From contig JBIJDH010000029.1 of assembly GCA_044344255.1 (NCBI GenBank), positions 1 through 64,000 on the forward strand: 64,000 bases of DNA, given 5' to 3'. Every line of letters starts with the position of its first letter. The stretch's first letter is position 1. Positions 29,683 to 38,269 of the stretch are shown in pieces. This DNA comes from Myxococcota bacterium (GTDB lineage Bacteria > Myxococcota_A > UBA796 > UBA2385). Position numbers and translations under genes: made by a program. A model generated the notes under the pieces. The model was not told the origin of the DNA and did not search any database. It saw only the letters and a list, made by a program, of their open reading frames with translations.

Positions 29683-29885
29683 CGGGGCCTCCATCATGCC
29701 AAGCGCCCTCATCCTGTCACAGTCTCGTCATGACACAGCCCCGTCCGACCACCGCCGGGCGCCGCAGTGACGGGTCCGGTCAGGCGCCTGACAGATCTCG
29801 GCAGGTCGCGGCGGGTCGTTCCACGAGGCTCCCGAGAAAGGGCGTTTCCGCCAACGTGGAACTTCGATCTCGGCAGGGGTGTCGA

Positions 29886-29901
29886 TGGCATACTTGTTGC
29901 A
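29886..29901 (+). promoter_or_regulatory. sigma54 (-24/-12) promoter
   Basis: TGGCAT-ACTTG-TTGCA, correct GG-N10-GC spacing, in an intergenic AT-rich patch. Confidence 0.7.
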
Positions 29902-30022
29902 ACATTTTACGAATCGTGACCCTTCCCGACCTACACCGCATGCGCCCCCCCCCTGTCCCACCGCACCGTGGTTCGGCGGCTCCCAGGAGGAGCCCCTCGC
30001 CCCTGCGCGTGGGGTGCGCGGG

Positions 30023-31213
30023 ATGATCTTCGGTCAGCGCGTCCTCATCGTCTTTGAGGCCGAGGGCCCCCGCGCCGAGCGGGCCCTCGAACAGCTGGCT
30101 CGGAACATCGACGGCTACGGGCACCTGCGAAAGAACACAGTCGACCTCCTGCTCCGCGGCTCCCCCCTGGTGCCTCCCCTGGGGCTCCCCTTTCGGGCCG
30201 TCCGTGAGCTCGGCCCCCTCGAGCCCGAGCTCTTCCCCGGCTTGGGCGCCGAGCAGCTCCGCCACCTCGAGGGGGCCGGCGCGCCGCTGCTACCGCTGCT
30301 CTTCGCCGCCCGCGAGGCGTACGACCACGTCCTGCTCTGGGACGGCGCCGAGCACCCGGTCGCCGCGGTCGGGCCCCGCGAGCGGCCCCAGCTCGCCGCG
30401 ACCGACGTCCTCGGCGCGCACCTCAGCCCGGACGCCGATCTCACGCTCGGCTTCGTCACCGGCTACACCTCACCGCTCCCCGGCTTCGACGCCGCCGGGC
30501 TCAGCCCCTCCGCCGTGGAGGCCTTCTCGGCTGCGCTGCAGCTCATCGCCCCCCACATCGACCCCGAGCCCCTGCTCGGCCCCCGCCGGCCGCTGCGCGC
30601 CCTCGCATCCCTGCCTGCGAATCGGCGAATCACCGACGCCGACGAGATGCCGACCTACCAGGGCAACCTCTGCATCCGCGTGGCCGCCATCCGAGAGGGC
30701 CGCCTCCCCGCCTTCCACGCTTCGCCCGGCGGAGCCGTCGAGACCCTGGGCGACTTCTCCCACGCCCGGGTGATGGGGGTGCCTGCCGGGAGCTTCCGGG
30801 ACACCATCGGGGAGCAGCCCGCGCTCGACCGCCCCGAGCTGCCCACCCGCTTTGAGGCCCCGGAGCGGGACGCCGAGGCCGCGTTGCGCCGCTTCGGCGT
30901 CGCGCTCCGCTCCGCGATCGCGCAGGCGCCGCTGCGGGTGCACCTGCAAGACGGCGCCCTCGCCTGGGTCCGCCTCGCCGAGCTGAGCATCCGCCTCCGC
31001 CCCCTCGACGCCCGGCTCCACGCCGAGTGGCCGGCCCTGGCCGCCCTGCTGCCGGGGGGCCTCTCCGGCGGACTCGACGCCGCCATCCGGCGCCTCCCGC
31101 GGGATGTCGCCGCGCTGGAGGACACCCGCCGCCTCTGGGGAGGCCTCTGGGGCCCGAGGGGGCAGCCCCGCCGCGGCGCCGTCGGCCTGCCCACCCTCGC
31201 CCTCCCAGGCTAA
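30023..31213 (+). CDS. hypothetical protein
   Basis: Long ORF with typical codon usage; start placed at ATG 30023 because it lies downstream of the sigma54 site. Confidence 0.65.
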   Translation: MIFGQRVLIVFEAEGPRAERALEQLARNIDGYGHLRKNTVDLLLRGSPLVPPLGLPFRAVRELGPLEPELFPGLGAEQLRHLEGAGAPLLPLLFAAREAYDHVLLWDGAEHPVAAVGPRERPQLAATDVLGAHLSPDADLTLGFVTGYTSPLPGFDAAGLSPSAVEAFSAALQLIAPHIDPEPLLGPRRPLRALASLPANRRITDADEMPTYQGNLCIRVAAIREGRLPAFHASPGGAVETLGDFSHARVMGVPAGSFRDTIGEQPALDRPELPTRFEAPERDAEAALRRFGVALRSAIAQAPLRVHLQDGALAWVRLAELSIRLRPLDARLHAEWPALAALLPGGLSGGLDAAIRRLPRDVAALEDTRRLWGGLWGPRGQPRRGAVGLPTLALPG

Positions 31214-32763: not shown

Positions 32764-33594
32764 ATGGGCACGAACACCATCACCCCGGGGACGCTGGCCT
32801 GGACTGTGCTCCAGCGCCTCGTGGAAGACCCGGGCGCCCTGACCGGGGCAGACCTCGCCCTCGATCTCGCCGCCGAGCTCGGAGAGGCGCCGCCCCCCTT
32901 GCCGCCGCTCCGCTGCGCCGCCGGCGCGCCGCCGACACGGTGGGCCCGCTACGGGCTGCGGCCGGTCTTCTCCACCTTCGCAGACCTCACCCGTCGCCGC
33001 GAGCAGCGAGCCGCGCACGCGGAGCTCGTCACCCTCCACCGCCGGCGGGCCCGGGCGGCGATGGCCCGCCTCGTCGACGCCCTCGAGGCCGAGGGCCTCG
33101 TCGAGCCGCGCCGCGCCGAGATCTCGCTCTCCCCCTCCTTCGCCGCCCAGGTCGAAGCCCGCGGGCTCCTCCACGCCATCGCCTTCTCTCGGATGAGCGC
33201 GCCGCTCTTCGTCGACCGCCCCGCCGCGGCCAGCGGCTGGGAGGGCGGCCAGGTCTCTCCGGAGGGCGAGGTCACCCTCTCCGATGAGGCCGACGAGGTC
33301 GCGATCGACGAGGAGGCGCCCCCCGAAGACGCGGCGCTCACGCAGGGCGAGGCCGCGCCAGCGCCCGCCGGGCCCGCCGCCGCGCCGGTCCGCCGTCAGA
33401 CCGCAGACACGCTCCGCCGCGCCCTCCTCGAGGCCCTCCAGCGGGGCCCCTGCTCCCGCGAGGCGTTGCTCGGTCCGTCGCCCACCCGCGCCGGCCTGCG
33501 CGCGCTCGCCGACCTCGCTGAACAGGGCATGATCAGCCTGCCCGCCTGTCGTTGGCCCTCCGAGGCGGGCCGCCAGCTCATCCTCGTCGGCTGA
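32764..33594 (+). CDS. hypothetical protein (possible winged-helix-like segments)
   Basis: RBS GAGG; LEAEGLV and LAEQGMI ends resemble wHTH wings; acidic linker between them. Confidence 0.6.
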   Translation: MGTNTITPGTLAWTVLQRLVEDPGALTGADLALDLAAELGEAPPPLPPLRCAAGAPPTRWARYGLRPVFSTFADLTRRREQRAAHAELVTLHRRRARAAMARLVDALEAEGLVEPRRAEISLSPSFAAQVEARGLLHAIAFSRMSAPLFVDRPAAASGWEGGQVSPEGEVTLSDEADEVAIDEEAPPEDAALTQGEAAPAPAGPAAAPVRRQTADTLRRALLEALQRGPCSREALLGPSPTRAGLRALADLAEQGMISLPACRWPSEAGRQLILVG

Positions 33595-33867
33595 GGCCGC
33601 GCCCCCGCAGGCGCGCGCGGCGCCGAGGGCGGTAAACGCGAACGGCGAACGCCTACGACCCGTGCACCGCTCGCCGAACGAGCGCGCACCGGACCCGGAT
33701 GAGCGCGCATCGCCGCCGCCGCCCGGGGGACGGCGACCACGTGGACCGATCGGTGGCAGACAGAATCGAAATTACCTTTGTACAACGACAACCTTCCCCC
33801 ATCGGCGGGCACACCCGCCCTCCCTCGCTCGGCCGACCCCGCTCGCCCGCCGGGGGCTCCGCCGGGC

Positions 33868-33883
33868 TGGCACGGGGCTTGCT
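33868..33883 (+). promoter_or_regulatory. sigma54 (-24/-12) promoter
   Basis: TGGCAC-GGGGC-TTGCT is an exact match to the consensus TGGCAC-N5-TTGCW. Confidence 0.8.
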
Positions 33884-33966
33884 TTGGTCTGTGTCACATC
33901 GGCGCCGCGACGCAAGAAGCGACGGAGGCCGATGGACAGACCGCCCGACCCCGAACGGAGCTCACC

Positions 33967-34032
33967 ATGAAGACGCGCACCAACTTGAAGTCCGGTTTCA
34001 ACCCCCAGCCCGACCCCCCAGGTCGCCACTGA
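33967..34032 (+). CDS. 21-aa micropeptide MKTRTNLKSGFNPQPDPPGRH
   Basis: GGAG RBS 6 nt before the ATG; sigma54 promoter upstream; strong hairpin downstream. Confidence 0.7.
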   Translation: MKTRTNLKSGFNPQPDPPGRH

Positions 34033-34070
34033 GCCTTTGAACTCAGCCGATTGACTTGTGACACCGAGCA

Positions 34071-34105
34071 GCCCCCGACACACCGCGATCCGGCGTGTCG
34101 GGGGC
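34071..34105 (+). terminator. stable hairpin 3' of the micropeptide gene (terminator or mRNA stabiliser)
   Basis: gcccccgacac (34071-34081) pairs perfectly with gtgtcgggggc (34095-34105); no clear U-tract. Confidence 0.55.
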
Positions 34106-34175
34106 GCGCTCATTTGGGGCCGTTTGGGGCGCGCACCCGGCCGGACGCCGCGGTGAGGCCGCGCTACGAAGAGGG

Positions 34176-34979
34176 ATGTCCACCGCGACCGATCGGCCCC
34201 AGCCTCCTCCCGCCGCGGATGGCCCAGAACCCGGCGCCCCCGCCCTCGAGCTCCTCCACCTTACGAAGCGCTTCGGCGAGAAGGTGGCGGTGGACAACCT
34301 CAACCTCACCGTCCCCCAGGGCGCCTTCCTCGGGCTCCTCGGCCGCAACGGCGCGGGCAAGTCCACGACCCTCAAGATGGCGACCGGGCTCATCGACCCC
34401 ACCGCGGGCTCCGTGCGGGTGCTGGGCCACGATCTGCGGGGGGCGCCGATCGCCGCGCGCCGCCTCATGGGCGTCGTCCCCGAAGACATGGCCCTGCTCG
34501 AGCTGCTCACCGGCCGGCAGTACCTCCGCTTCGTCGGTCGGATGTATGGCCTCGACGACGGGACGGCTGACCGTCGGGGCGCTGAGCTCTGCGAGACCCT
34601 CGACCTCCGGCCCGGCCCTCGCACCCTGGTGGCCGACTACAGCTTCGGGATGAAGAAGAAGCTCGCCTTCTCCGCCGCGCTCCTCCACGGGCCCCGCATC
34701 CTCTTCCTCGACGAGCCCTTCGAGGGCATCGACGCCGTCACGAACCGCACGATCAAGGACATCCTGCTCGCCCTGCGGGACCGCGGCGTGACGCTCATCC
34801 TCACCAGCCACATCCTCGAGGTGGTCGAGCGGCTCTGCCCCGACATCGCCATCATCGACGAAGGCCGGCTCCTCGGGCACGGCCCGCTGGGGGCGCTCCT
34901 CGACGGCGGGGGCTCGCTCGAGCGCCGCTTCCTCGAGCTCGTCGGCGGCGCCCCCCGGAGCGCCCCCGCGTGGCTCTGA
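34176..34979 (+). CDS. ABC transporter ATP-binding protein (ABC-2 export type)
   Basis: Walker A GRNGAGKST, signature YSFGM, Walker B LFLDEP, H-loop TSH. Confidence 0.92.
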   Translation: MSTATDRPQPPPAADGPEPGAPALELLHLTKRFGEKVAVDNLNLTVPQGAFLGLLGRNGAGKSTTLKMATGLIDPTAGSVRVLGHDLRGAPIAARRLMGVVPEDMALLELLTGRQYLRFVGRMYGLDDGTADRRGAELCETLDLRPGPRTLVADYSFGMKKKLAFSAALLHGPRILFLDEPFEGIDAVTNRTIKDILLALRDRGVTLILTSHILEVVERLCPDIAIIDEGRLLGHGPLGALLDGGGSLERRFLELVGGAPRSAPAWL

Positions 34980-36583
34980 ACGACCCGCCGCCGAGCGCCC
35001 TGCGCGCGGTCTGGCTCACCTTTCGGGCCCTCGCTGCTGCCCACCTCCTCGGGAGCTGGAACCGCCTCGGTCGACAGGCCGGGGTCGAGGGTCGGGCGGC
35101 GGTGGTCGCCCTCTACCTGCTCCTCGTGCTCTCCCTCGTCCTGCCCCTCCTCGCAGGCTTCGGCGCCCTCGGCTACCTGCTCGGTGAGACCCTCTCCGAC
35201 GGGGGGCCGGGGCTCCCGCTTGGGGGTGCCCTGCTGACCCTCTTCCCCGTCGTGGCCGGCGGCTTCGGCGGCCTGTCGAGCGGCTCACGCCAGCTCCCCT
35301 GGGAGACGCTGCGGGGCTTCCCCGTCCGCCCGACCGTGCTCTTCGGCGCCGAGCTCTTCGCCGGGGGCGCGGAGGCCGTCACCCTGATCGAGCTCGCCGC
35401 CCAGGCCTCCCTGCTCCTCGGCGTGGCGGTCGCGGTCCCCCGCGCGGCCCCGCTGCTCCTCGTGCTCCTCACTTCGCACACCCTCTTGCTGCTCGCCTTT
35501 CAGCAGCTCATCGGCAGCCTCGCCGAGCGGATGGCCCGGCGTGTCCGCCTGCTGCTGCTCCTGCTCCCGCTCACCGCCGTCTCGATGCCGTGGTTGATCG
35601 AGCAGCTCCGCGCCGCCTGGGGTGACCGCGGGCCCGGCCCGGCCTGGTCGGCCCTCCAGCAGGCATCGAGCCTGCTGCCCGCCTCGCGGCTCCTCGCCGC
35701 CGCCGCTGACACCCTCCAGGGGCGGGCCGATCCGACCGACCTCCTGCTCGCGGCGCTCGCCGTGGCCGGCTCGGCGCTGGGTGCCGTGGCGTTGGCCTAC
35801 TCCTTCGTCTCTCGAGAGCGGGCCCTCGACCTCGACCTCGGCGGTGGCCACGAGCGCCTCTGGACCTTCCGAAGCCCGGCCCTCGGGATCGCCCGGCTCC
35901 AGTGGCGGGCCCTCGCGAGCAGCCTCCCCGGCCGCTTCGGCCTGATGGTGCCGCTCTTCACGGTGGTCCTCGTGCGCGGGCCGCTGGCCACCTTCCTGCC
36001 GAGCTCCGGCTGGGCGGTGCCCCTCGCCTTCGCCTACGCGGCGATGGCCGGCGCCAACCTGCTCTTCAACCAGTTCGGACTCGACCGTCATGGCGTGAAG
36101 GTGCTGCTGCTCCTGCCCATCGAGCCCGAGGCCCTCCTCCGCGGCAAGCTGCTCGGCTTCGCCGCCTGGCAGGCCCTCCAGGCGCTGCTCCTCGTCCTGC
36201 TGCTCTCCCTCGGGGGGCGAGGAACGCCGACCTCCCTGCTCACCGGCGTCCTCCTCTACGCCTGCATCTTCCTCGTGCTCGCCCTGGTGGGCCAGCGGGT
36301 GAGCCTGTGGCTGCCCCGCCCGCTGAAGAAGAACGGCCTCCGGGCTGGCCAGCCGCCCTTCCTCCTCATGCTGCTCATCACGCTCTCCACCCTCGGCACG
36401 ACCGGCGGCCTCTTCGGCCTCCTCCTCCTCCTCCGCCACTTCGTCGCCGGCTGGGCGCCGCTCGGGCTCGTCGTCGTGACGGGCGCCCTCACGCTCTGCC
36501 TCGGGCCCGCCCTCCGGTGGAACGCCCGGTACCTCGTCGAGAGCCGGGAGCGGCTGGTCGAGACCCTCGGCGCCTCGGGCTGA
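34970..36583 (+). CDS. ABC-2-type exporter permease (large, multi-TM)
   Basis: Overlaps the ATPase stop; many TM segments; NQFGLDRHG...LLRGK motif. Confidence 0.8.
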   Translation: MALNDPPPSALRAVWLTFRALAAAHLLGSWNRLGRQAGVEGRAAVVALYLLLVLSLVLPLLAGFGALGYLLGETLSDGGPGLPLGGALLTLFPVVAGGFGGLSSGSRQLPWETLRGFPVRPTVLFGAELFAGGAEAVTLIELAAQASLLLGVAVAVPRAAPLLLVLLTSHTLLLLAFQQLIGSLAERMARRVRLLLLLLPLTAVSMPWLIEQLRAAWGDRGPGPAWSALQQASSLLPASRLLAAAADTLQGRADPTDLLLAALAVAGSALGAVALAYSFVSRERALDLDLGGGHERLWTFRSPALGIARLQWRALASSLPGRFGLMVPLFTVVLVRGPLATFLPSSGWAVPLAFAYAAMAGANLLFNQFGLDRHGVKVLLLLPIEPEALLRGKLLGFAAWQALQALLLVLLLSLGGRGTPTSLLTGVLLYACIFLVLALVGQRVSLWLPRPLKKNGLRAGQPPFLLMLLITLSTLGTTGGLFGLLLLLRHFVAGWAPLGLVVVTGALTLCLGPALRWNARYLVESRERLVETLGASG

Positions 36584-36829
36584 GCGCGGGCCCCCGCCTC
36601 TCGCCTCCCGGGGCCCCACCCGGCCAGGCGTGGACCGCCCGCTGCTGTTCTTGACTTGCGTACACTCTCACAACAAACACCTGACACTCTGCATGACAAC
36701 TGCAAACCATAGCGTTTTAACTGCATTATTTAAACAACAACAAGAATAAAGGTTGGCATCCTGAGGCCGCTTGACGTCCCTTGACACAGCTTTGCTTTCG
36801 GTCCTGACGGCTGCGTGCATGTTGTCAGC

Positions 36830-38269
36830 ATGCGAACCAAGACCCCCGCCTTCCTCACGCTCTCCCTCTCGCTGTGTGCCAGCGCCCTCGTCGTCGGCTG
36901 CGCGTCGAAGCCGGCGCCGGCCTTCTCGGAGGGCGACGTCGACACCGCGCAGCTCGGAACGTGTCAGGCGGATCCCGATAACTCCACCCGCGCGACCTGC
37001 ACGGTCAACGTGACCTCACCCACCCGGATCGAGGTGGAGATGGACCTCGGGATGGAGCTCGTCACCGAGGCTCGGCAGGTCGAGACTGGACAGACCAGCT
37101 TTACGGTGAACGGACTGATCGCAGACACTGTTGTTCAGTGGTCCCTGGCCTCGGAAGACAACGAGCAGAGCGGAGAGCTACACACCGCGAAGCAGGGCGA
37201 CGCTCACCGGGTCCCGCTCAAGATCACCGACAGCGGGCGGTCCACCGTGAAGCAGGTGCTCCTGCCCGGCATGTGCGGGGAGTCGAGCGAGCTTTACGTG
37301 GTGGACGCCAAGGGCCATGTGCGCTGGTACGGAGACCTTGACCCGGAGGGGCGCGCCTCCCCGAGCTGGGTCACAGCCCTGTCCGTCTCGGACGAGGGCA
37401 CCTTCGTCGGCATGGTGGGCGACTCCCGCATCGCTGAGGTCACCCTCGACGGGGAGCTCGGCCTCGAGCTGGAGCGCGGCCGCGACTTCGACCTCCCGGT
37501 CCACCACGACCTGTCGCTCCAGGGCGGTCGACTCCGCGCGCTGATGGCCGACGAGATCACAGCGCCGGACGGCATCCGCCAGGTGGTGGACGGCGTCTAC
37601 ACCTTCGACGCCGAGGGCGCGCTCGAGGACGAGTGGCTGATCTCCGACCACCTCACCCTGCCGCTCGAGCTCCCGCCCGACGCCACAGACAACGGCGTCT
37701 GGAAGGAGGAGTGGCCGGGGGCCTATGACGTCACCCACGCCAACTCGCTGGCCGTCGACGCGCAGGGCGACCTGCTCATCTCGGCGCGCCACCTCGACGC
37801 CGTGATCCACGTCAAGGGGCTCGACGACGCGGAGCCCGGCCGGATCGACTGGACGCTCGCCGCCTCGGGCATCATCCCCTCCACCTTCCGGGTGGACAGC
37901 GCGGTGCAGGGCACCTCGACCTTCGCCTCCCAGCACCACGCGACCTGGATCGACGGCACCCACCTCCGCCTCTTCAACAACGGCGGCCCCTTCGAGACCC
38001 CGAGCTCCGTCCCCTCGACCGCGCTCAGCCTCTCGCTCGATCCTGTCACCGGCGTGGCCACCATTGAGGAGAGCGTGAGCTACAGCAGCTTCTGTGACTT
38101 TGGAGGCTCCGCCTATCCCCTGCCCTCGGGCAACCTCCTGCTCTCCTGCTCGGAGGGCGCCTCGGCGATCGAGGTCGAGCCGAGCGGGGAGGTGGTGTGG
38201 CGGATGGTCGCCGACTGCGGGGGCTCTCCCGCGGTGCTCGTTCGCGCGATCCCGGTCGACCTGTTCTGA
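36830..38269 (+). CDS. aryl-sulfate sulfotransferase (ASST)-family lipoprotein
   Basis: Lipobox VVGC; HHD, HANS, ISARH, QHH, LFNNG; beta-propeller repeats. Confidence 0.8.
   Translation: MRTKTPAFLTLSLSLCASALVVGCASKPAPAFSEGDVDTAQLGTCQADPDNSTRATCTVNVTSPTRIEVEMDLGMELVTEARQVETGQTSFTVNGLIADTVVQWSLASEDNEQSGELHTAKQGDAHRVPLKITDSGRSTVKQVLLPGMCGESSELYVVDAKGHVRWYGDLDPEGRASPSWVTALSVSDEGTFVGMVGDSRIAEVTLDGELGLELERGRDFDLPVHHDLSLQGGRLRALMADEITAPDGIRQVVDGVYTFDAEGALEDEWLISDHLTLPLELPPDATDNGVWKEEWPGAYDVTHANSLAVDAQGDLLISARHLDAVIHVKGLDDAEPGRIDWTLAASGIIPSTFRVDSAVQGTSTFASQHHATWIDGTHLRLFNNGGPFETPSSVPSTALSLSLDPVTGVATIEESVSYSSFCDFGGSAYPLPSGNLLLSCSEGASAIEVEPSGEVVWRMVADCGGSPAVLVRAIPVDLF

Follow-up and report, generated by a model that had tools for sequence, protein, structure and literature searches.

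A 21-codon gene in a Myxococcota genome as a candidate orphan precursor of an exported peptide

Can an open reading frame (ORF) of only 21 codons be a genuine peptide gene, and if so, what would become of its product? The question is raised by a 64,000-nt stretch of a Myxococcota bacterium genome (assembly GCA_044344255.1, contig JBIJDH010000029.1, positions 1 to 64,000), referred to as the window in this text. At 33967-34032 on its forward strand, in front of a pair of ATP-binding cassette (ABC) transporter genes, lies an ORF for the 21-amino-acid (aa) peptide MKTRTNLKSGFNPQPDPPGRH. The original prediction, made from the letters of the window, had listed an exact sigma54 consensus, a GGAG ribosome-binding site, the ATG at 33967, the 21-aa ORF, a perfect 11-bp hairpin and the ABC ATPase and permease genes, and we found each of them in place (Table 1). 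We see a slightly better than even chance that the gene encodes an orphan, monocistronic precursor that would be cut and exported in trans by a module with a C39 peptidase, and whose product would serve outside the cell as a ligand, in all likelihood as a signal.

The peptide gene and its family

Using an exact pattern for codons 8-17, we scanned 185,579 GTDB species genomes and obtained 41 loci, two of them on the same contig. Sorting by regular expression assigned 17 loci to a short class, whose genes have a 10-aa leader, 14 to a class with a double-glycine (GG)-type leader and 3 to a class with a long or multi-cassette lysine-rich (KxK) leader; among the other 7, two look by eye like long KxK leaders. 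Besides the window gene, the short class comprises 25 genes, which are spread over 16 distinct loci and come from 15 genomes of Myxococcota and Acidobacteriota, with Minicystis rosea, two Nannocystis, Archangium lansingense and several Acidobacteriota among the carriers. Tandem copies occur, four in Minicystis rosea and three each in L027 and L051. The short genes share the form MKxK[ST]x[VIL]K[AS]G-FNPQP[DE]PP. At one locus (L052:4980-5583), two peptide genes face each other, with promoter and downstream hairpin nearly identical in each; we read this pair as a recent inverted duplication in which one copy has a doubled core.

The following counts of 26 genes include the window gene, and the script that collected them required a Met at position -10. 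FNPQP[DE]PP is present in all 26, and Lys2, Ser/Thr5 and Pro18 are invariant as well, all three lying outside both the search pattern and the Met rule. Variation falls mostly on the third codon position, where the entropy is 1.23, compared with 0.40 at the first and 0.32 at the second. Within codons 11-18, pairwise codon differences are 1123 synonymous versus 88 non-synonymous, an excess that is in part forced by the search pattern. A purine-rich Shine-Dalgarno sequence lies ahead of 23 of the 26 genes. Longer starts for the ORF (for example TTG at 33778, giving 84 aa) were rejected, because the only start conserved among the homologues is the ATG that lies ten codons ahead of Phe. Judged from this conservation, the ORF is a real, overlooked gene; it is under coding selection and presumably translated.

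A profile of 21 positions retrieved 372 representatives at E<=0.001 among 1.84 billion. The statement in the original prediction that such leader starts and NPQPxPP motifs recur in uncharacterised small proteins was borne out by the genome scan and by these profile matches. The exact window peptide is absent from a collection of 15 billion proteins, in which 5 of the 8 peptides looked up from genomes, family members or paralogues, are missing (the window's included). No Pfam or NCBIfam model matches it, and the paralogue and multi-cassette precursors scanned gave no match to either database except a spurious L36, far below cut-off. ESM Atlas returned only unnamed clusters with low recognition, and the named relatives are almost all called 'hypothetical' in their sources. 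A literature search at the level of titles and abstracts (supplements, figures and subscription papers lie outside this scope) found no paper on the motif, the leader or the family. In the window genome (8.18 Mb, 71% GC), NPQPxPP occurs a single time across the six frames of 8.2 Mb. Searched with the strict leader pattern, 150 genomes of the phylum gave 5 with a match against 3 for the reversed control, which is near chance, and relaxed leader patterns gave noisy results.

Leader paralogues, exported cores and a candidate exporter

About 11 paralogues in the window genome carry the same leader end with different cores. They stem from a regular expression for short ORFs with this leader end, which gave 23 rows; 12 were kept by eye (Shine-Dalgarno sequence, leader likeness). 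Four paralogues lie directly before modification-type genes, namely LanB (contig C77), a 2-oxoglutarate (2OG) oxygenase with an MvdD-type ATP-grasp protein (C70) and cupins (C73, C77). The remaining ones are orphans, like the window gene. Outside the window genome, cores of microviridin-like and of YG-repeat radical-SAM type are found behind this leader end. The predicted precursor shares a feature of ribosomally synthesised peptides with post-translational modifications (RiPPs), a leader/core architecture with a leader end that is used beside RiPP enzymes. The original description of the peptide as RiPP-like holds for the leader, whose paralogues stand beside such enzymes, but not for the window core, which no modifying enzyme follows.

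Several paralogue loci are of note in their own right. A 39-aa leader-family peptide with a Ser/Thr/Tyr/Trp core directly precedes the full LanB gene (L004:4604-10510, C77); the scanned neighbours include no LanC, and an unannotated 450-aa CxxCxxCC-like gene comes before it, making this a candidate unusual RiPP locus. On C70 (L008:5965-7801), a graspetide-like precursor is followed by the 2OG-Fe(II) oxygenase and the MvdD-type ATP-grasp gene; three near-identical orphan precursors are found on C26, C77 and C83, two of them with perfect sigma54 sites. Leader-family peptides with Arg/Lys-rich cores stand directly before JmjC/cupin genes on C73 and C77 (L006:6085-7587, L011:6047-7501). Two 19-aa paralogues (L001, L002; C69:28435, C75:3706) have the same leader, a common IFDRPS core and perfect sigma54 sites, and the one on C75 converges on a sigma54 activator adjoining a Ser/Thr kinase-WD40 gene. 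Since only this one among the 12 lies within 5 kb of both a kinase and an activator, such proximity was rejected as a general feature. Elsewhere, a KTNLKAG leader end with repeated PLYG units, which we take to resemble spliceotide YG motifs, precedes a radical SAM/SPASM gene (L201:2800-4437, G190), and microviridin-like TMKYPSD precursors with the same leader end cluster with ATP-grasp genes and the exporter subfamily described below (L202, L205; G056, G146).

The core, too, is found in other contexts. FNPQP[DE]PP follows the GG-type leaders of the 14 loci mentioned above (Chloroflexota, Actinomycetota, Proteobacteria and others) and the lipobox Cys of myxobacterial lipoproteins. Among 146 newly listed best profile matches, a crude classifier, applied to a ranking that favours repeat proteins, distinguished 23 KxK-leader, 62 signal-peptide-like and 61 other proteins; in about 12 of the 146, the first residue of the motif adjoins a small-residue site of Sec type, as judged by eye in 23 rows without SignalP. 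It also occurs in PEP-CTERM proteins (5 of 30 scanned), in Ig-like, Kelch, SH3/TSP3 and S74 domain proteins, and as tandem repeats within Sec-type small proteins, of which the repeat-only peptides have no Pfam or NCBIfam match. Viral contigs contributed one locus, a PEP-CTERM-like protein, and plasmids none.

The motif would be delivered by at least four export routes: the lysine-rich AG leader with a C39 exporter subfamily of its own, the classical GG leader, Sec and the lipoprotein pathway. The bipartite structure with a boundary after Gly10, proposed in the original prediction, agrees with both patterns, different cores behind the same leader end and the same core behind other leaders. Independent leader types thus deliver the same N-terminal Phe, and no other evidence speaks as strongly for where the cut falls and for a role outside the cell; Phe11 is most likely the first residue of the mature peptide. 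Pheromone cores typically vary between strains, whereas this core is conserved across phyla. As a tentative and rather doubtful extension, FNPQP[DE]PP could be a short linear motif of the extracellular space that several phyla share and that has so far escaped recognition, serving as a peptide signal or as a docking tag; the window gene would be its minimal free-peptide form. If true, this would imply a conserved extracellular receptor or enzyme, plus a sigma54-controlled layer of peptide signalling in Myxococcota. We also noticed an unannotated secreted domain of about 200 aa in which FNPQP[DE]PP occurs twice, always the same distance apart, and which is often joined to a PEP-CTERM tail (P0343, P0349, P0356, P0360, P0366; L014, L015, L223).

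Which exporter would handle the window peptide? In two loci (L039, L045), multi-cassette FNPQP[DE]PP precursors lie directly before HlyD and C39-ABC genes. The window genome encodes one full-length orthologue of this exporter, in a module of HlyD, C39-ABC and a second ABC protein on contig C54 (~9.6-15.6 kb), and it is 49-57% identical to the L039 exporter. The nearest solved structures to the C39 domain are those of the PCAT1, ComA and LahT domains. Gln/Cys/His/Asp are invariant in 15 of 15 aligned C39 domains, and the catalytic residues of the C54 protein are intact. No precursor was found beside the C54 module.

The exporter is distributed much like the peptide family. We chose 20 KxK-leader carriers from the 41 loci, one locus per genome, and found an orthologue in 17 of them (all E<1e-63), comprising 10/10 Myxococcota/Deltaproteobacteria, 7/9 Acidobacteriota and 0/1 Verrucomicrobia. 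The background is 9 of 150 genomes of the same phylum and 3 of 100 Acidobacteriota; in genomes of at least 7 Mb, the exporter is present in 16/16 peptide genomes versus 5/31 background genomes. It lies within ~5 kb of the peptide gene in 5 of the 20 genomes, twice directly behind multi-cassette precursors and three times near a short gene (0.7 kb, 3.8 kb and 4.4 kb away; two of these genomes are Nannocystis). Co-occurrence, repeated linkage and intact catalytic residues are observations, from which we infer cleavage and export. The exporter likely is the C54 module rather than the adjacent ABC pair. Maturation in trans, which the original prediction had considered, is supported; that prediction did not include the C54 exporter, which looks dedicated and tracks the family, or the use of the core with other export signals.

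The leader junction can be compared with that of known substrates. Gly occupies position -1 in all 26 genes, and position -2 is Ala in 20, Ser in 5 and Gly in 1, both positions being constrained by the search pattern. Position -4, outside the pattern, is V/I/L in 23 genes (Leu in the window) and His in the 3 Nannocystis genes. Double-glycine substrates are described, in the available part of PMC10885120, as carrying GG, GA or GS at -2/-1, and PCAT1 and LahT need hydrophobic residues at -7 and -12 on a helix, as far as the available parts of PMC6959990 and PMC10885120 describe them. The family leader lacks hydrophobic -7/-12 residues. It would behave in the manner of double-glycine substrates, yet is not to be classed among the canonical ones.

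Control by sigma54 is indicated by several counts. The genome contains 42 exact sites versus ~4 expected, and the frequency of an 11/11 site in a random 200-nt segment is 0.0003. The site of the window gene, 83 nt ahead of its ATG, is of this kind. Among the 12 leader genes kept by eye, 7 have a perfect 11/11 site within 200 nt upstream (6 when unbiased, one row having been admitted through a regular-expression letter added after its sighting in the promoter list), and such a site is absent from all 11 rows that were dropped. A relaxed site 26-51 nt upstream is found at 7 of 11 Myxococcota/Deltaproteobacteria homologue loci, as against 0.3-4% of control windows, and at 0 of 5 Acidobacteriota loci. 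The sigma54-driven small gene of the original prediction finds support in these data: sequence and conservation show the promoter, which is presumably active.

We propose the following mechanism, in which the gene would belong to a regulon for peptide export directed by the leader. An unlinked sigma54 activator would turn on an mRNA of ~210-220 nt with hairpins at both ends, which would be translated into the 21-aa precursor. The C39 domain of the C54 module would recognise the 10-aa lysine-rich leader and cut after Gly10, and the module would then export the core across the envelope. The product would be FNPQPDPPGRH with a free N-terminal Phe, probably unmodified, which is the simplest reading. 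The same leader would route several other peptides of the window genome, some of them enzymatically modified, through the same exporter. That extracellular FNPQP[DE]PP is a ligand for a binding protein, most likely an intercellular signal, is plausible at somewhat less than an even chance.

Several points weigh against this mechanism. The exporter is far from the peptide gene in 12 of the 17 positive genomes, and on another contig in the window genome. It was not found in 3 of the 20 peptide genomes (assemblies of 4.0, 4.2 and 6.0 Mb, completeness not given). The strict 10-aa leader is present in only 1 of 9 exporter-positive background genomes (related leader ends in ~5, by eye), so that the exporter is not specific to the window peptide. 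The background searches scored only the top 15-23 candidates per genome. Kinship among the genomes, of which two are Nannocystis and two others (L028 and L059) almost the same, means that the counts are not independent and that p-values computed from them are overstated. No receptor or recurrent regulator adjoins the short genes, and no sigma54-activator or kinase motif was found on contig C5; the activator motif has ~28 matches in the genome. Finally, the leader has only 10 residues, and in place of the canonical hydrophobic residue, -7 is K/R in 20 of 26 genes and Q in 4.

Competing explanations and the surrounding features

The same leader and exporter could also deliver a matrix or surface component, serving adhesion, self-association or as a docking tag, instead of a diffusible signal. 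The tandem motif repeats in Sec-type small proteins and the presence of the motif on lipoproteins and on PEP-CTERM, Ig-like, Kelch, SH3/TSP3 and S74 proteins would suit such a role, as would the tandem gene copies, taken as gene dosage. A matrix precedent is provided by the GG-leader EbfG proteins exported by PteB, as described in the available part of PMC4997328. However, a free core of 8-11 residues is small for a structural role, and the multi-cassette precursors stand beside extracytoplasmic function (ECF) sigma or Ser-Thr kinase genes, which fits signalling. We regard this alternative as unlikely.

An improbable explanation is a true RiPP that is modified in trans, before or after export, by Pro/Asn/Asp hydroxylation (cupin or 2OG oxygenase), C-methylation (B12 radical SAM) or C-terminal amidation at PP-G-R/K. 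The leader paralogues beside LanB, ATP-grasp, 2OG and cupin genes speak for it. So do two unrelated GG-leader FNPQP loci (L044, L049) that abut TIGR03975 methyltransferases above cut-off, and a third (L025) that abuts a LanL/LanKC-like kinase-lyase. In addition, 236 motif copies have a G behind PP, and 95 of 345 have GK or GR there, an ending that resembles the amidation signal of animal neuropeptides. However, several family genes stop directly after PP or PPG and so lack a basic residue at this place. Ser, Thr, Cys, Tyr and Trp are all absent from the core, no recurrent enzyme is found beside the short-peptide loci, and a Pfam/NCBIfam scan of the neighbours revealed no modifying enzyme adjacent to the window gene. 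Genome-wide co-distribution covered two candidate modifiers. TIGR03975 stays below cut-off in the window genome, and no more than 6 of 20 peptide genomes have it; an orthologue of the C73 cupin was found in 1 of 16. Both were rejected as required partners. As for the methyltransferase loci themselves (L044:163-5100, L049:2828-5200), their precursors combine GG/Nif11-type leaders with FNPQPEPP beside B12 radical SAM C-methyltransferases, and the hosts are a Thermodesulfovibrio and a Holophagae genome.

It is very unlikely that the product stays inside the cell, uncut or trimmed in the cytoplasm, where it might, for instance, compete for the machinery that binds leaders, act as its decoy, or serve the ABC operon as a regulatory leader. 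The three carriers without a detected exporter and the non-canonical leader would be in line with this, and read-through into the ABC genes could be attenuated by the hairpin that separates them from the ORF. Yet the core is invariant, not the leader alone, and is met again behind signals of the Sec, lipoprotein and GG types. A conserved attenuator role is excluded, since the genes that lie downstream are not the same from locus to locus and often run on the other strand.

A part for the adjacent ABC-2 pair, as exporter of the peptide or as protection against it, is highly improbable. The pair is on the same strand, with 144 nt between the peptide stop codon and the ATPase start, and the ATPase is DrrA/lantibiotic-protection-like. 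But the pair has no peptidase domain, and a strong hairpin separates it from the peptide gene. A permease profile of 24 sequences, which matches the window genome and G058, has no match in any of the 20 peptide-bearing genomes, and the permease was matched at 0 of the 41 scan loci. Conversely, neither the peptide nor a sigma54 site is present at any of the 4 homologous ABC loci (out of 8 permease loci) with DNA upstream of the ATPase; a further 3 have no upstream DNA. The genes beside the short peptide genes vary in identity and strand. The link to this pair suggested in the original prediction was not upheld, and we judge the pair to be a bystander that is not part of the peptide system. Its permease has no Pfam or NCBIfam match of its own, although relatives match ABC2_membrane_3/ABC_tran_2 weakly; among 109 relatives, the named ones are Myxococcaceae/Archangium hypotheticals.

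A chance ORF or non-coding RNA is scarcely credible. The absence of the exact protein from the 15-billion collection and the strong structure of the predicted transcript would fit it, but codon-level conservation spans two phyla with Shine-Dalgarno sequence, ATG and stop, and Rfam holds no family for the region at gathering score.

Table 1. Positions of features around the peptide gene in the window
Feature	Position	Strand	Remarks
AT-rich patch	33760..33789	.	63% A+T over 30 nt, genome 29%; ~80-110 nt upstream of promoter
sigma54 (-24/-12) promoter	33868..33883	+	TGGCAC-N5-TTGCT, 11/11 consensus positions
Predicted 5'-terminal hairpin	33893..33937	+	fold of predicted transcript, z -4.3
Shine-Dalgarno GGAG	33957..33960	+	6 nt ahead of ATG 33967
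Basic leader MKTRTNLKSG, 10 aa	33967..33996	+	family form MKxK[ST]x[VIL]K[AS]G; presumed cut after Gly10
Core FNPQPDPPGRH and stop	33997..34032	+	presumed mature exported peptide
3' hairpin	34066..34111	+	perfect 11-bp stem 34071-34081 / 34095-34105, extendable to 34066-34111
ABC-2/DrrA-like ATPase	34176..34979	+	PF00005; 34176 likely start; best NCBIfam TIGR01188, below cut-off
ABC-2-like permease, 537 aa	34970..36583	+	~10 predicted transmembrane segments; unannotated

The transcript probably starts at ~33894, at the base of the 5' hairpin. Such 5' hairpins are predicted at the presumed start of several homologues and paralogues, and many homologues have strong hairpins 3' of the gene or of its last tandem copy. 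Since predicted transcripts often begin and end in hairpins, compact monocistronic mRNAs are suggested. The 3' hairpin of the window gene (z -5.5, matched by 0 of 200 shuffles) would be a transcript end or a 3' stabiliser that divides the peptide mRNA from the ABC genes. An intrinsic terminator was not called at this strong stem with its weak U tail (ATTT); T tails are found behind the 3' hairpins of some homologues (L029, L063). Long-range pairing of the mRNA ends, as in type I toxins, was rejected, being absent from the minimum free energy structure and not conserved. Three metatranscriptome assemblies of the same study yielded only short Walker-A-type matches from other organisms, which speak neither for nor against transcription.

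The AT-rich patch, for which the original prediction had envisaged enhancer or integration host factor (IHF) sites, is present and may be an activator or bending site, but no IHF consensus with up to 2 mismatches occurs in 33650-33900. An upstream ORF of 12 aa (33932-33970, forward strand) overlaps the peptide ATG with its stop (ATGA). Its GGAGG lies only 3 nt before its start, within the 5' hairpin, and no counterpart was seen in the 5' untranslated regions of the homologues; translational coupling or chance are both possible. Farther out, a second AT-rich intergenic stretch (36640-36800) lies ahead of an arylsulfotransferase-like lipoprotein gene (36815-38269). Two ORFs upstream of the peptide gene (32764-33594, 29879-31213) have no Pfam or NCBIfam match.

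Significance and comparison with known systems

The family defines an unmodelled class of 10-residue leaders together with a matching subfamily of C39 exporters, and both could be used to mine for precursors that are too short for gene callers. They could also help to link orphan loci of lanthipeptide, graspetide and cupin type, in Myxococcota as well as Acidobacteriota, to a maturation machinery that acts in trans. That a near-invariant exported core is common to proteins of the Sec, lipoprotein and PEP-CTERM kinds suggests a binding partner outside the cell. Since some carriers are in culture (among them Minicystis rosea, Nannocystis radixulma and Archangium lansingense) and synthesis of the peptide is easy, secreted peptide signals in myxobacteria become directly testable.

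Among known systems, the double-glycine peptides of peptidase-containing ABC transporters (PCAT/AMS; ComC/ComA, CtA/PCAT1, LahA/LahT) are alike in the short precursor, the junction of a small residue and Gly and the hydrophobic -4, as well as in a C39-ABC exporter with intact Gln/Cys/His/Asp and, as for LahT, one exporter for many cores (available parts of PMC10885120 and PMC6959990). By comparison with what these sources describe, the leader of the window family has 10 aa, is lysine-rich and ends in Ala/Ser-Gly, not GG/GA/GS, without hydrophobic -7/-12; its exporter is usually unlinked, control is by sigma54 and the core is conserved across phyla.

The layout of HlyD, peptidase-ABC and peptidase-less ABC is shared with the NHLP/Nif11 export module (TIGR03794/03796/03797). 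However, the C54 exporter scores far below the cut-offs (182 of 853 bits; 98 of 709 bits), and the window precursor has a 10-aa leader without a Nif11 or NHLP domain. EbfG1-4/PteB of Synechococcus elongatus are similar as small GG-type secreted proteins that need a peptidase transporter and for which the available part of PMC4997328 names no modifying enzyme. The window core differs from them, as described there, in being proline-rich with 8-11 aa, and the likeness is drawn from the description.

Microviridin-type graspetides and myxobacterial RiPPs (PMC8939145, available part) come closer in the leader: the end KTx[VLI]KAG is shared by PFFARFL/TxKYPSD precursors near MvdD-type ATP-grasp genes and this exporter subfamily, and by the C70 paralogue. 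Measured against that description, the window peptide has no PFFARFL, no Ser/Thr/Lys in its core and no adjacent ligase. The multi-cassette KVKTxVKAG...NHNQT repeat precursors of Acidobacteriota have the same leader unit and the same exporter, with FNPQP[DE]PP as one cassette core; the motif is found in 21 of the 120 best matches of a multi-cassette query that itself holds it. Compared with these precursors, the window gene represents the minimal one-cassette form: it lacks NHNQT, and neither a kinase nor an ECF sigma gene is linked to it.

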